A DNA stretch of 38,813 nucleotides, taken from NCBI GenBank assembly GCA_949280095.1, contig CASDHD010000001.1:1-38813 (forward strand), written 5' to 3'. Below the pieces are notes generated by a model. It saw only the letters and a program-made list of their open reading frames with translations. It had not been told where the DNA came from and made no database searches. Source of the DNA: an uncultured Bacilli bacterium (GTDB taxonomy: Bacteria; Bacillota_I; Bacilli_A; RF39; UBA660). The position numbers were made by a program, and so were the translations under genes. Every line of letters begins with the position of its first letter. Position 1 is the first letter of the stretch. This document shows, one piece after another, positions 27,460 to 35,491 of this stretch.

Positions 27460-28532
27460 TGAATGAGTTAAAATTAATCGTTTTGGATAATATAGAAGGT
27501 TTAGGTAGAAAGGTGGATGAACATTTACAAAAGGAAACAGGTTGTACAGAGTCCTTTTTACTTCCTATTACAAAAGATCGCTTTAGTAACGGAGAAGGAA
27601 AGATTAAAATTAATGCATCTGTACGAGATAAAGATATTTATATTTTAAGTGATGTTGGAAACTATAACATTACGTATCTTATGCATGGATATACTCATCA
27701 TTATTCACCTGATGAACACTTTCAAGATATTAAAAGAGTGATTTCGGCTCTTTCTGGATATGCTGCGAAAATCACTTTAGTTATGCCTTTGCTTTATGAG
27801 TCACGTCAACATAAAAGAAAAGGAAGAGAGTCTTTAGATTGTGCGATTGCCCTAAAAGAACTTGAATCCCTTGGTGTAGATCATATCGTTACTTTCGATG
27901 CGCATGATCCAAACGTTTCTAATGCTATTCCGAATCTTCCTTTTGAAAATTTCTTTGTGGCCCATGATATTTTAAATCAAATTGTAAAAAAAGAAAATAT
28001 TAGTAATTTACTTGTTATTAGTCCCGATATGGGTGCTATGGAGCGTGCTAGATATTATGCTGAAATTTTAAATAGCGATGTAGGTGTTTTTTATAAAAGA
28101 AGAGATTTGAGTAAAGTGATTGATGGCAAAAATCCAATTGTAGAGCATGTTTATTTAGGAGCTCCTGTTGTTGGAAAAGATGTTATTGTTGTTGATGACA
28201 TGATTGCGACAGGTTCTTCCATGATTGAAGTAGCAGAATATTTAAAAAGCCATGGGGCTGGAAAAGTGTATTTGGTTTCTACGTTTGCTCTTTTAACAGA
28301 AGGTCCTTCTATTTTTATAGAAAGCTATCAAAAGGGTTTATTTGATAAGCTTTATTCTACTAATCTTTCTTATGTTTCTGATATTATCAAAAATTTGGAG
28401 TGGTATGAAGAAGTAGATTGTTCAAAAAGACTTTCTCGTATTATTGAAAAATTACACAATAAAGAATCTTTAAAAACCATTTATGATGATGTTAAAGAGG
28501 TATTACATAATGTAGAGAGGAAAAAAGTATGA
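27456..28532 (+). CDS. prs: Ribose-phosphate pyrophosphokinase (PRPP synthetase)-like
   Basis: ATGA overlap with nadE. PRPP-binding loop VIVVDDMIATGSSM, ISPDMGAMERA and FDAHDP motifs. Confidence 0.7.
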   Translation: MMNELKLIVLDNIEGLGRKVDEHLQKETGCTESFLLPITKDRFSNGEGKIKINASVRDKDIYILSDVGNYNITYLMHGYTHHYSPDEHFQDIKRVISALSGYAAKITLVMPLLYESRQHKRKGRESLDCAIALKELESLGVDHIVTFDAHDPNVSNAIPNLPFENFFVAHDILNQIVKKENISNLLVISPDMGAMERARYYAEILNSDVGVFYKRRDLSKVIDGKNPIVEHVYLGAPVVGKDVIVVDDMIATGSSMIEVAEYLKSHGAGKVYLVSTFALLTEGPSIFIESYQKGLFDKLYSTNLSYVSDIIKNLEWYEEVDCSKRLSRIIEKLHNKESLKTIYDDVKEVLHNVERKKV

Positions 28533-29107
28533 GAATTGGAATATTTGGTGGCTCTTTTAATCCACCGCATAAGTTGCATAAAAAAATTGCTACCTACTTA
28601 CTTGAAAATAACTATGTAGAAAAGGTGATTTTTGTTCCTACGGGAAATCGTTATCCAAAAGAGGCGTTACTGGAAAGTCAATATCGTTATCACATGATTA
28701 AAGAGATGATTAAGGATTCTAAAAATATGGAAGTATCGGATTATGAACTTAAAAATACTCTTACATATACATACCAAACGCTTTCTTATTTTCAAGAAAA
28801 GTTTAAGAATGATAAAATTTTTTTTATAACTGGAGCAGATAATTTAAAAGAAATAAAAACTTGGAAGAATTATCAATATATTTTAGAACATTTTAACTTG
28901 TATGTTTTACCTAGAAAAAAGCAAAATGTAAAGGAAATTTTAAGTCATCTTCCCAATGAGAATATTTTTGCTTTAGATTTTGAAACAGAAGATGTTTCTT
29001 CTACAGATGTACGAAAAGCAATCAAAGAACATTGTGAAGAATATTTAAATTCCGTTTTGGATGAAAATGTTTTAGAATATATAAGGAAAGAAGGGTTGTA
29101 TCAATGA
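28529..29107 (+). CDS. nadD: Nicotinate-nucleotide adenylyltransferase
   Basis: ATGA overlap with prs. IGIFGGSFNPPHKLH (H/TxGH motif) and a C-terminal SSTDVR (ISSTxxR) motif. Confidence 0.9.
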   Translation: MRIGIFGGSFNPPHKLHKKIATYLLENNYVEKVIFVPTGNRYPKEALLESQYRYHMIKEMIKDSKNMEVSDYELKNTLTYTYQTLSYFQEKFKNDKIFFITGADNLKEIKTWKNYQYILEHFNLYVLPRKKQNVKEILSHLPNENIFALDFETEDVSSTDVRKAIKEHCEEYLNSVLDENVLEYIRKEGLYQ

Positions 29108-29621: not shown

Positions 29622-30425
29622 ATGGATAGAAAAATCAATCGTATTTGTTTGTTTTCTAATCATAATGAGAAAGCAAAAAGTATTGAAGAGGAAGTGAAAA
29701 GACAACTTGAAGAAAAAGGATTTTCTGTAGTGGACAAAGAATATGATATGGGTCTTGCTATTGGAGGAGATGGTTCTTTTCTTCGTATGGTCAAACAAAC
29801 AGGTTTTTTAAGTCATCTTTATTACGCTGGTATTAATGCTGGTACTCTTGGCTTTTTACAAGAAATTAAAATAGAGGAAATCGCCGATTTTGTTGAAAAA
29901 CTTAAATACAATAAATTTAAAGTAGATGAGGTGAGTATTCAAGAAACGAAAGTGATAGCAAAGAATGATTCTATAACGTATTGTTCCTTGAATGAATTTG
30001 TTGTTAGAGATAAGTATTTAAATACGACAAATTTGAAAGTTTATGTGAATGATGAATTGTTAGAAAGATTTGTTGGGGATGGAATTTTGATTTCTACTTC
30101 AACTGGTTCTACTGCTTATAACTTAAGTTTTGGTGGAAGTATCGTTTATGCAAGTTTACATACATTGCAAATTACCCCTATAGCGCCTCTTAATAATAAA
30201 TCGTATCGAAATTTGTTAAATTCGGTGATTGTTCCAGAAAATGCTAAAATCACTTTGGTGCCTGAAAAGGAAAAAAAGGATTTACTTATAAGTGTTGATG
30301 GGGAAAACGAAGAGTGCAATGAAGTAGAGAAAATTGAAATTACAGTGCGGAATAAGAAGATAAAATGTTTAAGAATGTATGATTACGATTTTACAAAAAT
30401 CATTCAGGAAAAATTTTTAAAGTAA
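29622..30425 (+). CDS. nadK: NAD kinase
   Basis: GGDGSFLR, GTLGFL and STGSTAYNLSFGGSIV motifs. Confidence 0.9.
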   Translation: MDRKINRICLFSNHNEKAKSIEEEVKRQLEEKGFSVVDKEYDMGLAIGGDGSFLRMVKQTGFLSHLYYAGINAGTLGFLQEIKIEEIADFVEKLKYNKFKVDEVSIQETKVIAKNDSITYCSLNEFVVRDKYLNTTNLKVYVNDELLERFVGDGILISTSTGSTAYNLSFGGSIVYASLHTLQITPIAPLNNKSYRNLLNSVIVPENAKITLVPEKEKKDLLISVDGENEECNEVEKIEITVRNKKIKCLRMYDYDFTKIIQEKFLK

Positions 30426-31514: not shown

Positions 31515-31989
31515 ATGGACATAGAAGATAAAGAATGGAAAGAAATAGAAAAAATTCCTTCTAATGCTAATGATTTAATTGCTATAACTGTTGTGAAAAA
31601 ATTAGGGGCTTATGTTATTGCAGTAACGGAAAAATCACCTAAAAAATTTCGCGGCTTATGTTATTGCAGTAACGGAAAAATCACCTAAAAAATTTCGCGG
31701 AGTGTTTGTGAATAGAATGCAAAATTATTGTTTGGATACATTAGAACTTTTACTAGAGGCTAATTTTATTCGTATAGACTCTAAAGATAATAAAACAAAA
31801 AGAGAGGAGTTGCAAAAGGAAGCTATTGTAAAATTAAAGCTTCTAGGATATGTTGCTATGGTTTCTCTAAATGCTTCTTGTATTTTGACTAGACAGTATA
31901 AGCAAATATCTATGCAACTTGCAAAAGCAATCAATCTTATCATTGCTTGGAAAAAAAGCGATGATGAAAGGTTTAAAAAAAGAAATTAG
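31515..31989 (+). pseudogene. avd: DGR accessory variability determinant (Avd, four-helix-bundle / 23S rRNA-IVS-like protein), frameshifted by a 46-bp tandem duplication
   Basis: The two ORFs 31353..31688 (frame 0) and 31702..31989 (frame +1) fuse in frame if one 46-bp copy is removed. The fused product is ...DLIAITVVKKLGAYVIAVTEKSPKKFRGVFVNRMQNYCLDTLELLLEAN...LAKAINLIIAWKK... This resembles the Bordetella Avd pattern (..SIPRKHGVAREMFLKCLLGQVELFIVAG...ILGSWI.., quoted from memory). The start at M55 (31515) is a guess; the frame is open from 31353. Confidence 0.7.
31607..31698 (+). repeat. Perfect 46-bp tandem duplication inside avd
   Basis: ggcttatgttattgcagtaacggaaaaatcacctaaaaaatttcgc at 31607-31652 is repeated exactly at 31653-31698, followed by a further gg. 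46 is not a multiple of 3. Confidence 0.95.
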
Positions 31990-32061: not shown

Positions 32062-32141
32062 CGCCCGCGCTGTTAACTAAAATGGAAATAGAAATTGGAA
32101 CAATGTTAATAAACGTACTGGTGGGGCTCGCCCAGATTCAC
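32062..32141 (+). repeat. DGR template repeat (TR)
   Basis: 80 bp align without gaps to 33619-33698. Of 19 mismatches, 17 are at TR adenines. It is a GC-rich island in AT-rich sequence, has 7 AAY codons in the VR frame, and lies between avd and the RT. Confidence 0.9.
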
Positions 32142-32276
32142 TTTTGAAGAGATTTTTAATAAATCTAGAAAACGGATTCGAGAAATTTATTTTAGAAAAA
32201 ATAGGTCTATATCTTAAGGTGAAGGAATTTTCTTCTTTTCTATTCGCTATGAATTTATGCGTTTAGAAGAATATAA

Positions 32277-32348: not shown

Positions 32349-33269
32349 ATGAAATTAGAAGAGATTTTCACCTTTGAAAATTTATACCGAGCATATAAAA
32401 AATGTCGCAAAGGAAAGCAACATAAAGGAGAGGTTATTCGTTTTGAAACAAATCTATCAGTTAATTTAAGTAATATTAGAAGTGAATTGTTAAGTAAAAC
32501 ATATAAACTTGGAAAATATAAGAAATTTTATATTTATGAGCCAAAAGAAAGGCTTATTGAAGCATTGCCTTTTAAAGATAGAGTAGTTGTTCGATGTTTT
32601 TGTGATACTTCATTACGTCCTAAACTTGAAAAAAAACTAATATTTGATAATTGTGCTTGTCGTAAAGAAAAAGGAACACATTTTGCTATTCAAAGGTTGC
32701 ATCGCTTTTTAAGAAAAGAATTTAAAATAGAACAAAACAATCATTTTTATTTTTTAAAATGTGATATCAAAAAATTTTTTCCTAGTATCCATCATGATAT
32801 TTTATTAAATCTTTTAAAGGAAGTTGATTTTTCAGTGGAAGAAATGTGGCTAATAAAAAAACTTGTCAAAGACCAACCTGACAAAGCAAATATTGGACTT
32901 CCTTTAGGTAATCAGTCTAGTCAATGGTTTGCTTTATTTTATTTGAATAAAGTGGATCATTTTATTAAGGAAAAATTACAGATAAAATCTTACGTTCGTT
33001 ATATGGATGACATGATTTTGCTTCATAAAGATAAAGAAGTTTTAAAAAGATGTAAAACAGAAATTGAAATAATGATTAAAGATTTATTAGAATTAGAATT
33101 GAATTCTAAAACACAGATTGGACAAGTTAAAAATGGAATTGATTTTTTAGGATATCGCCATATCATGAAAGAAAAAGGAAGAATTATTATAAAATTAAGG
33201 GCTTCTTCTAAACATAGAATGAAAAAACACATTAAAACAATTCATAAGCTTATAAAAAAGGAATTGTAG
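32349..33269 (+). CDS. DGR-type reverse transcriptase. As written the frame stops at 33269; the C-terminal segment continues in the -1 frame to 33388.
   Basis: GGAGG lies 5 nt upstream of ATG 32349. RT motifs: PKERLIEALPFKDRVV, DIKKFFPSI, LGNQSSQ (the DGR-specific [LIV]GxxxSQ) at 32904-32924, YMDD at 33000-33011, and FLGY. Confidence 0.9.
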   Translation: MKLEEIFTFENLYRAYKKCRKGKQHKGEVIRFETNLSVNLSNIRSELLSKTYKLGKYKKFYIYEPKERLIEALPFKDRVVVRCFCDTSLRPKLEKKLIFDNCACRKEKGTHFAIQRLHRFLRKEFKIEQNNHFYFLKCDIKKFFPSIHHDILLNLLKEVDFSVEEMWLIKKLVKDQPDKANIGLPLGNQSSQWFALFYLNKVDHFIKEKLQIKSYVRYMDDMILLHKDKEVLKRCKTEIEIMIKDLLELELNSKTQIGQVKNGIDFLGYRHIMKEKGRIIIKLRASSKHRMKKHIKTIHKLIKKEL

Positions 33270-33388
33270 ATGGAAAGTATGTGTCAATAAGAAAGAATGC
33301 TTTTTCTAACCATATTAAGCATACGAACGAATCTTCTCATTGGAAAGAGGAAATTTTTTCCAAAATGGATGAAACTGTGATAAAATAA
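33254..33388 (+). other. -1-frame continuation encoding the missing RT C-terminal (thumb-end) segment. The junction is an A_AAA_AAG heptamer.
   Basis: Zero frame: ...ctt atA AAA AAG gaa ttg tag. The -1 frame from 33254 reads KKGIVDGKYVSIRKNAFSNHIKHTNESSHWKEEIFSKMDETVIK*. Its HxxH(T/A)(N/D) pattern resembles my recollection of the C-terminal ..SWLGHARHADT.. region of the Bordetella phage RT. Confidence 0.6.
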
Positions 33389-33412: not shown

Positions 33413-35491
33413 ATGAGTAATTTAACATTTTTAACAGAGGAACAAATCTTCGGAAAAAGTTGTCTAGAAATATTTAATAAATATGGTACAGAATGTGCAA
33501 TTACAGATTTCTCTATTCTTTTAGGAGGATATGTATCGAATTTTTGTTATACTAGTGAAGGAGATTCGCAAGAAAATCGTACTGGTTGGTGGTGGACTAA
33601 GACACCTTATGGAAATAACGCCCGCGTTGTTGACTGGCCTGGACTTAGGCGTTGGAGCGATGTTGATAGGCGTGCTGGTGGGGCTCGCCCAGCTTTACCT
33701 TACTCAGTAATCCAATCCATCTCCTCGAACAGAGTGAGAGGGACTAATGGTATTTTGGAAGTAGAGTATGGAGAATATCCACAAACTATAGTTCCAGAAT
33801 CACTTTCAAATTTGTTAGAACAAAATTTTCAATATAAAACACTCACAAAGACTGGAAAAGAGTATATTACAGATTCTGTACAGTGTGATTGTTATTCTAC
33901 TTCTTTTCAACCACGAAACCATATTGAGTTTAGTTATAAAGGAAAAAAATTCATTCGCTTTGTAGCAGATTTAAATTGTGAGGATAGAAATTTGTCCGAT
34001 GGCCGTCAGGTGAAAGTTGGTAGTCCTTATTGGATAGAAGTAGAACCTATTAAATGGTTAATTTCTGAGAAAGAAAATATAGCAGTTTGTAAAAAAATTA
34101 TTTTTGCAGGAGTTCAATTTAATCAAGAGCAAAATTATAAAGGGAATTTTGAGAATACCGATATTTATAAATTTTTAGAAAATTGTTTTTCGAAAGATAT
34201 AGAAGCTATTAACATCAATACACCTTTAGAAAATAAAGAAACAAAACCAACCCGCTTACAAAAAATGAATCCTGATACGACCAAAGTAAATGAACGAAGA
34301 AATATGACGGCAACAGAAAAAATTCAAGATTGGATCGAATCAGGGCAATCTGTTTTGCTGCGTGGACCCTCTGGTATCGGAAAAACAGAAAGACTGAAAA
34401 CTTTGTACCCAGATTTAATTTATATCAAACTAACAAACAATATGTTTCCAGAAAAAGTAGTAGGGTCGATGAATTTCCAAACGGGACAAAACATTCCTCC
34501 TGATTTCTATAAACAAGCAATGCTCGATTGTGCAACTCCAGAAGAACAAAAATTAATCAAAGAAAATGTCCAAAATTTGTATGACTTAGCAGATAAAATT
34601 TATGAACGATCAAAAGAAAGCAAAGGAAAAATTGTCATCTTGCTCGATGAACTTTTAAATGTGACACCTGCGGTTCAATCTCTGGTCTATACCTTAGTAC
34701 TAAATCGACTAGTAGAAATAGGAAAGGGTTTGAAATTACCTGAAAATGTGGTAGTGGTAGCAACAGGAAACCAAAAAAAATACTCTATTGTAGCAAAAGA
34801 CATAGCAGAACCTCTTGAAAAACGTTTTGATCATATTTTTGATATGGAGCCAAAAGTAGGAGAATGGTTATATGACTATGCGATTCCTAATAAAATTCAT
34901 CCTTCTGTTATTGGTTTTATTATGTCCAAGTATTTAAGTACAGGAAAAAGTGAAGAAATAAAAGATATGGGATACTTCTATGAAGAACCAGAAATTGGAG
35001 AAATGCATCCTGATAAATATGGTTGTAATGGAAGAACCAATGACCCCAGAGGATGGGTATCCATATCCAATACACTGTATAAGTTTGAAAAAAACTTACA
35101 AACAGGCAAATACATAGGAAAAAATGTGGAAAATATATTAGAAACTTCTATAAATACCAAATTGCGTTCTGAGTGGGCAAGTGCTTTCTTTAACTTTTAT
35201 AATTTACCTACTTTATCTGTCAAAGAAGTCGTAGAAAAAAACTATGGAGAGAGTGCTTTACCAAAAACGAGCAACGAACGATTTGCGACTCTTACTTCTC
35301 TTTTAATGGCAAACAAAGACGAAATAAAAGCATGTAGAGAATTTGTAAGAAACTATTGTGATCCTGAATTTTTAGAACTCTATGACTTCTGTTGGATAGG
35401 CAAAGATATAGCAAGAATGGAAAAAATTATGGAGTTAAAATCATTAGAAAATAATGTAGAACTTCCAAGTGAAAGGAGAGCAATGGCGTGA
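33413..35491 (+). CDS. DGR target: cytoplasmic protein with an N-terminal VR-bearing ligand-binding-like domain fused to a MoxR/AAA_5-type AAA+ ATPase
   Basis: No signal peptide or TM helix. N-terminal WWWTKTP...ARVV...GGARPAL motif resembles DUF1566/DUF6273-type (C-type-lectin-fold-like) modules. The VR covers codons 70-96. Walker A GPSGIGKT at 34364-34387, Walker B IVILLDE, and PENVVVVATGNQ. Confidence 0.85.
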   Translation: MSNLTFLTEEQIFGKSCLEIFNKYGTECAITDFSILLGGYVSNFCYTSEGDSQENRTGWWWTKTPYGNNARVVDWPGLRRWSDVDRRAGGARPALPYSVIQSISSNRVRGTNGILEVEYGEYPQTIVPESLSNLLEQNFQYKTLTKTGKEYITDSVQCDCYSTSFQPRNHIEFSYKGKKFIRFVADLNCEDRNLSDGRQVKVGSPYWIEVEPIKWLISEKENIAVCKKIIFAGVQFNQEQNYKGNFENTDIYKFLENCFSKDIEAININTPLENKETKPTRLQKMNPDTTKVNERRNMTATEKIQDWIESGQSVLLRGPSGIGKTERLKTLYPDLIYIKLTNNMFPEKVVGSMNFQTGQNIPPDFYKQAMLDCATPEEQKLIKENVQNLYDLADKIYERSKESKGKIVILLDELLNVTPAVQSLVYTLVLNRLVEIGKGLKLPENVVVVATGNQKKYSIVAKDIAEPLEKRFDHIFDMEPKVGEWLYDYAIPNKIHPSVIGFIMSKYLSTGKSEEIKDMGYFYEEPEIGEMHPDKYGCNGRTNDPRGWVSISNTLYKFEKNLQTGKYIGKNVENILETSINTKLRSEWASAFFNFYNLPTLSVKEVVEKNYGESALPKTSNERFATLTSLLMANKDEIKACREFVRNYCDPEFLELYDFCWIGKDIARMEKIMELKSLENNVELPSERRAMA
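33619..33698 (+). repeat. DGR variable repeat (VR), within codons 70-96 of the target gene
   Basis: See the TR entry. The 3' 18 bp CTGGTGGGGCTCGCCCAG (33675-33692) is identical to TR 32118-32135, an IMH-like GC-rich element. Confidence 0.9.

Follow-up and report, generated by a model that had tools for sequence, protein, structure and literature searches.

A one-nucleotide deletion shared across a species truncates the reverse transcriptase of a probably decaying DGR cassette in an uncultured Bacilli bacterium

The window (the whole stretch of DNA analysed here, 38,813 nt) holds a DGR cassette whose reverse transcriptase (RT) gene is broken by a genuine one-nucleotide deletion between codon L301 and codon G305, and we put at approximately 80% the probability that this species-wide lesion, which truncates a DGR RT of the Bordetella bRT type, is an ordinary recent knockout in a decaying cassette. 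The locus combines an RT-disrupting mutation, an absence of turnover in the variable repeat (VR) and further lesions, which together characterise an inactivated or decaying DGR. The deletion brings a TAG into frame after 306 residues and so removes the last two thumb helices, where some of the most conserved residues of the family lie. In the proposed course of events, the truncated enzyme would be inactive or nearly so, and the cassette would for that reason have stopped diversifying its target and would decay, with further disabling changes later arising in avd, the RT and the target gene of different strains. At most, the A_AAA_AAG sequence at the break would allow an unprogrammed leak of full-length RT. 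The features concerned are listed in Table 1.

Table 1. Features of the DGR cassette in the window, with the evidence or comparison on which each entry rests
Feature	Position	Strand	Evidence or remark
DGR reverse transcriptase, zero-frame ORF, 306 aa (P0002)	32349-33269	+	Translation, Pfam RVT_1, PDB 8ub7 match, YMDD and LGNQSSQ motifs
Lesion zone: TT (33250-51), AT, A6 (33254-59), one base fewer than relatives	33250-33259	+	DNA of relatives and 113-sequence alignment
In-frame A_AAA_AAG heptamer, probable by-product of the upstream frame change	33254-33260	+	Direct sequence reading
Premature TAG, zero frame	33267-33269	+	Direct sequence reading
Remnant of the RT C-terminus in the -1 frame (42 codons and TAA), corresponding to the last two thumb helices	33260-33388	+	Translation, homolog alignment, AF2 model of P0004, 8ub7 superposition
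Template repeat (TR)	32062-32144	+	20 mismatches to VR, 17 at TR adenines
VR, N-terminal region of the target gene (33413-35491, 692 aa)	33619-33701	+	Identical across strains
46-nt tandem duplication (repeat family D2) splitting the avd-like gene	31596-31687	+	Duplication absent from L008 and L002, where the 193-aa gene is contiguous
G3 run, intact in the window; one G lost in L002-L007, giving a 290-aa product	33199-33201	+	Locus comparison

Translation of the RT reading frame from the ATG at 32349 gives a product of 306 aa, which matches Pfam RVT_1 (E = 1.5e-17) and has the Bordetella DGR RT 8ub7 as its closest PDB entry (E = 2e-41). The product contains RYMDDMILL and LPLGNQSSQWFA, and possesses both a YxDD motif and a motif 4 ending in SQ, the latter being a criterion for DGR-typical RTs (PMC3521204). 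The thumb domain is not complete in one frame, the zero frame stopping at residue 306: direct reading of the RT 3' end gives ...AAG CTT ATA AAA AAG GAA TTG TAG, in which the TAG at 33267-33269 stands two codons after the in-frame A_AAA_AAG, while the -1 frame from 33260 translates as GIVDGKYVSIRKNAFSNHIKHTNESSHWKEEIFSKMDETVIK up to a TAA at 33386-33388. The original prediction had described both parts of this layout, a zero frame closed by the TAG past the A6 run and a -1 frame open for 42 codons, and direct reading confirmed the former and translation the latter. Rfam and tRNA scans of the complete 38,813-nt window returned no matches.

Relatives were searched with a conceptually joined protein (zero frame plus -1 frame), which retrieved 3356 homologs. 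Among the matches listed (119 besides the window protein, of the 3356), all but two are 337-374 aa in length and two are 327 aa, one of these (P0027) being itself truncated; nearly all of the listed relatives are 65-75% identical to the joined query and cover 90-100% of it. The 113 aligned relatives (65-86% identical, approximately 340 aa) are without exception contiguous across the lesion site, from which it follows that the window RT gene carries a one-nucleotide deletion; whether orthologous RTs would run through the site in one frame was a question that the original prediction had raised, and all 113 do. The -1 segment matches GIVDDEYVYxRKNAFYNHIKxTxES without any gap, both in a 24-sequence and in a 113-sequence alignment. 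Residues D308, Y311 and R315 of this tail are invariant in the 113-sequence alignment and a further set (V307, K316, N317, A318, F319, Y320, N321, H322, K324, T326 and E328) is conserved in at least 90% of the sequences; the window segment retains 13 of the 14, the exception being Y320, which is replaced by S. A six-frame search with the intact relative P0004 also matched 33227-33346 in the -1 frame, with 55% identity to residues 293-333 (E = 6e-7). Judged from these alignments, the homology of the -1 segment to the RT C-terminal block is not due to chance, supporting the earlier impression that the segment resembles the conserved C-terminus of DGR RTs.

The AF2 model of P0004 (pLDDT 92, pTM 0.88) has helices at residues 285-303, 309-323 and 330-335, and superposes on bRT 8ub7 over 333 columns (TM 0.81/0.84, 29% identity). 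A profile search to carry the bRT sequence alignment into the tail ended at bRT residue 289, so the correspondence of the tail to bRT rests on the fold comparison instead; by this comparison, the -1 segment corresponds to the last two thumb helices of the RT. With the zero frame stopping at residue 306, the helix positions in P0004 place the end of the window product after the first thumb helix, without the last two. It might be argued that the 306-aa truncated RT is functional and its C-terminal tail dispensable, given that the truncation spares the palm, the fingers and the first thumb helix and that polymorphism in the RT body is biased towards synonymous changes (below), but we regard this as highly improbable, because three residues of the tail are invariant across 113 relatives and eleven nearly so, because its counterpart in bRT is the terminal thumb helices, and because the VR is frozen.

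The identity of the lost base bears on the origin of the heptamer. In the 113 relatives, the invariant K300-L301 is followed by R, Y, K, S, E or Q and never by I, and in the first alignment Y occupies this position in 20 of 22 intact relatives. Read in the -1 frame, the window has TAT AAA AAA GGA (Y K K G) at the site; the relative on contig L038 has TTA TAT AAA AAA GGA (LYKKG) in a single frame with the same A6, and other relatives have, likewise in a single frame, AAA CTA TAT GAT AAA GGT or TAC GAT AAA CAG. On the strength of these sequences, the lost base may have been one T of CTT-TAT or an A of an A7 run, with T at least as likely: an A7 run would be the more mutable of the two, but loss of a T agrees better with the protein family, given the Y that follows KL in the relatives and the DNA of L038. 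A change from A7 to A6 as the sole origin of the lesion was rejected on account of this better fit. If T was lost, the in-phase slippery heptamer would be two lysine codons left after the frame moved, i.e. a by-product. The original prediction had offered, as one of three possibilities, that deletion of a single A inactivated the RT; contiguous relatives, a shared lesion, a frozen VR and further lesions support the one-nucleotide deletion, while the base itself may be T.

The lesion is common to nine contigs from other assemblies, seven of which were seen across the site. The lesion-bearing loci comprise L008 (ENA, 100% identical to the window), L001 (SRR28738936, 99.5%) and L002-L007 (six Logan runs, 98.3%), and the base count is identical in assemblies from at least eight runs or samples and on three allelic backgrounds. 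The lesion is real, and no available assembly of the species is without it. Homopolymers are error-prone on some platforms, and the window comes from an 84%-complete MAG, but a sequencing or assembly error at the homopolymer was rejected because independent assemblies share the lesion with the same base count, and it is virtually out of the question as the cause of the frame break.

Searches for an ON allele gave no candidates: none was found at 90% identity or above among 15 billion proteins, where the cluster consists of 306-, 306- and 290-aa forms only, and a DNA pattern allowing 0-2 extra bases at either run had no matches in the genome_contigs and metagenome_contigs collections. No tract-length polymorphism was seen in the seven other-assembly contigs across the site, all of which have the same length as the window. 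These results bear on the suggestion, made in the original prediction, that the A-run is a phase-variable ON/OFF switch, in which the homopolymer would gain or lose a base at a high rate and a reservoir of ON cells would be kept. Although the lesion lies in or beside a homopolymer, one inserted base would restore the frame, and relatives also have C-terminal frame lesions (L038, in an A9 run, and P0130), a tract of only A6 (or T2) falls short of typical contingency tracts and is not conserved, the relatives encoding TAT GAT AAA GGT or TAC GAT AAA CAG. Together with the uniform OFF length in 7 of 7 contigs and the lack of ON protein in the 90% cluster and of ON DNA in the two collections, this makes phase variation very unlikely.

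The two repeats serve as a read-out of diversification. The TR/VR mismatches fall at TR adenines in 17 of 20 cases, and this adenine-specific pair is accompanied by an avd-type gene, as expected of a DGR. Over their first 72 nt, the TRs of L001-L006 and L008 do not differ, and nor do the VRs of the window, L008 and L002-L006, these seven identical VRs being counted as seven contigs and not as seven independent hosts. Between the window/L008 type and the L002 type, the neighbouring cassette DNA differs by 1-4%, the 3' half of the RT contains 9 substitutions and 3 indels, and a patch of the target gene differs by approximately 25%; as the VR is identical while the strain types have diverged elsewhere, the broken-RT species has not changed its VR since the strain types split. 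In contrast, a sister species with an intact RT (340 aa, 75% identical to the window RT, same cassette layout) has a constant TR and a VR that differs at TR adenines in 3 of 3 spanning samples (L015, L016 and L018), a comparison that excludes contigs L017 and L019-L021, which end before the VR. A frozen VR with a broken RT, set against a differing VR (3/3 samples) with an intact RT, constitutes a clean natural comparison within one DGR family, and provides a useful yardstick for calling DGR activity from metagenomes.

The excluded contigs of the sister species (L017, L019-L021) end approximately 115-260 nt past the RT stop, upstream of the VR position, and these ends may be the assembly signature of within-sample VR heterogeneity and hence of an active DGR. 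The divergent patch of the target gene (34153-34477) lies in the linker between the VR domain and the AAA+ domain and has, over 325 nt, approximately 80 differences and several indels relative to the L002 type, while the 741 nt preceding it, VR included, are identical in the window and the L002 type; the patch has either a mosaic or recombinant origin or is a second hypervariable region, one without adenine specificity.

Other lesions in the cassette differ between strains. The avd-like gene upstream encodes 193 aa in L008 and is split by the frameshifting duplication in the window. In the L002 type, the 290-aa RT (P0123) ends ...KLRLLLNIE, a codon deletion removes the conserved E328, the -1 stop is lost, and the target gene ends at 557 aa, compared with 692 aa in the window; the housekeeping flank (4352 nt) has 6 substitutions and no indels between the strain types. 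The original prediction took the avd duplication and the RT break together to mean that both DGR enzymes carry potentially reversible frame lesions. Both lesions are indeed present, but the duplication occurs only in the window strain and is absent from L008, so the two are independent events of different age and not a paired switch. The L002-type contigs (L002-L005) all diverge from the window at approximately 35047 and end within approximately 50 nt, and the divergence near 35047-35100 suggests an insertion or rearrangement (repeat or IS) in the L002 strain type. A second DGR-like cassette was observed in the same genome on contig C91 (L011:546-1922, minus strand), consisting of a 120-aa Avd-like ORF and an RT with 36-39% identity to P0004; this second RT is also interrupted, by an in-frame TAG (VVHQ*YVEE) and a frameshift at ILKCD(S*), and the organism therefore has two broken DGR RTs.

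The junction does contain an X_XXZ_ZZN heptamer in the zero frame (A_AAA_AAG, 33254-33260), and the original prediction had raised the possibility that full-length RT is made by programmed -1 frameshifting at this site. AAAAAAG is not enriched in the window (53 observed, 47.5 +/- 6.5 expected), and A_AAA_AAG occurs in frame in five other long plus-strand ORFs, a sixth match on the minus strand being left uncounted owing to inconsistent coordinates. The heptamer-bearing ORFs include 28529-29107 and 29622-30425, whose counterparts in the syntenic locus L002 match Pfam CTP_transf_like and NAD_kinase; the heptamer is thus common in the ordinary genes of a window with a G+C content of 26-35%. Neither a two-frame architecture nor the shift site is conserved among orthologs, as 113 of 113 aligned relatives are single-frame and the site codons are non-slippery in TAT GAT AAA GGT and TAC GAT AAA CAG. 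Neither the fold downstream of the site (33261-33340, z = -0.51) nor that across it (33230-33300, z = -0.99) was better than those of shuffled sequences, and no GGAGG or AGGA that could act as an SD-like stimulator was present within 20 nt upstream. With no two-frame ortholog, no stimulators and a heptamer common in window genes, the proposal of programmed frameshifting found no support; the frame break is probably not a recoding signal, and the heptamer appears to be accidental in an AT-rich gene.

Polymorphism within the RT body was compared among three lesion-sharing alleles, and differs at 10 synonymous and 3 nonsynonymous codons (P ~1e-5 under neutrality, with 82% nonsynonymous sites). 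This 10:3 bias is a signature of purifying selection, as expected if the RT is still selected. The differences are, however, clustered: in L001, five lie within 170 nt of 1381, and in L002 a stretch of 1229 nt is free of differences, after which 530 nt contain 9 substitutions. On account of this clustering, recombination patches imported from, or predating, functional alleles are judged a likelier source of the synonymous bias than purifying selection in situ, although this attribution is unproven. RT polymorphism at 32666-33242 relative to L001 and L002 is patchy, and the divergence there is approximately 8 times that of the housekeeping flank (0.14%).

As the attribution to recombination is only inferred, some weight is retained for a leaky or compensatory reading, in which -1 frameshifting on A_AAA_AAG would yield a little full-length RT (...KLIKKGIVDG...), the DGR would be throttled, and purifying selection would persist. 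The heptamer is in the right phase with a zero-frame stop two codons on, A_AAA_AAG is among the shiftiest bacterial motifs and is truly shift-prone, its shiftiness depending on a single tRNA-Lys(UUU) that reads both codons (PMC5009743), the RT polymorphism has the 10:3 synonymous bias, and the window -1 segment keeps 13 of 14 conserved residues, an observation that fits a recent lesion equally well. In E. coli, the motif gives approximately 0.3% frameshifting without stimulators and approximately 3.7% in the best context (PMC4066793), and the window site is without a hairpin or an SD-like stimulator and without an ortholog in two frames. The slipped product would also place I where the 113 relatives never have it, and full-length RT in the L002 type would take two -1 shifts at separate sites, the first of them on TTA-AGG, which is not slippery. 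Furthermore, the VR is unchanged between the strain types and changed in 3 of 3 samples of the intact-RT sister species. We consider leaky frameshifting unlikely rather than negligible, and prefer a plain knockout.

DGR RTs truncated by a frameshift, a nonsense mutation or an IS insertion, with TR and VR intact, have been described (PMC3521204), and a decaying DGR with a truncated RT is a known phenomenon. The inactivated DGRs in the DiGReF survey of Schillinger et al. 2012 (PMC3521204, Fig. 4; e.g. Bacteroides sp. 9_1_42FAA) likewise have an RT ORF cut by a point frameshift and TR/VR pairs that are almost purely adenine-specific (17/20 in the window), which was read as recent inactivation; unlike in those cases, the window lesion can be traced across strains, being shared by all types and accompanied by a frozen VR, secondary lesions and the contrast with an intact-RT sister. 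The likeness to the Bordetella phage BPP-1 bRT (8ub7) extends to the best sequence match, the fold of an intact relative, and the combination of an avd-like gene, a TR, an RT and A-to-N mutagenesis. However, identity to bRT is only approximately 29%, the avd-like gene, where contiguous, encodes 193 aa, and the window RT is frame-broken; the VR here lies near the N-terminus of a cytoplasmic AAA+ ATPase, whereas that of BPP-1 lies at the C-terminus of a phage tail fibre.

Two further systems invite comparison with the break itself. Frameshifting of the dnaX/IS911 type uses the same heptamer in the same phase, and the nearby zero-frame stop has counterparts in several IS elements, but the window site lacks an SD-like element, downstream structure, a conserved two-frame layout and a functional read-out. 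The 'savior indel' in the G-run of herpesvirus thymidine kinase, with its low-level compensatory frameshifting (PMC5009743), likewise involves an indel in or next to a homopolymer, where a trace product might suffice; in the window, unlike in that system, the phenotype (VR turnover) is absent and nothing indicates that the product is made or needed. In annotation, the label of frameshifted pseudogene is appropriate for the window RT, and that of probably silent DGR for the cassette.

RT lesions were also observed in other relatives. A sister species (L025-L037; RT at L028:1006-2019, VR near L028:2300-2370) has the same cassette with an RT 75% identical to that of the window, and carries an in-frame TAA (CAA>TAA, Q126*; compared with L014) in at least 10 contigs from several studies. 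This RT allele also replaces conserved residues (P74S and H118Q), and the contigs hold at least six VR variants, all differing at TR-adenine positions, with a constant TR. VR variety despite Q126* might stem from recombination, from an RT acting in trans, from readthrough or from an RT that functions as a split enzyme. A more speculative view of such alleles, to which we give little credence, is that broken RT alleles in this DGR family are throttled and not dead, trace full-length RT being made in the window species by A_AAA_AAG slippage; premature stops and frameshifts would then dim hypermutation at the level of the population. If so, this would explain the synonymous bias among lesion-bearing alleles, and the cassette would be the first DGR with a mutagenesis rate set by translational recoding.

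Two other relatives carry lesions in the C-terminal region. The RT of P0027 (L038:1005-2110) reads HIKKNK* because its A9 run has one A too many, and the following frame, which continues as TNEKLKLKNLFYPE, agrees with the family consensus; the coverage of this contig is only approximately 2.7x. The RT of P0130 terminates in ...GIVDDECKW. Homopolymer indels seem to arise readily in the RT tails of this AT-rich family.
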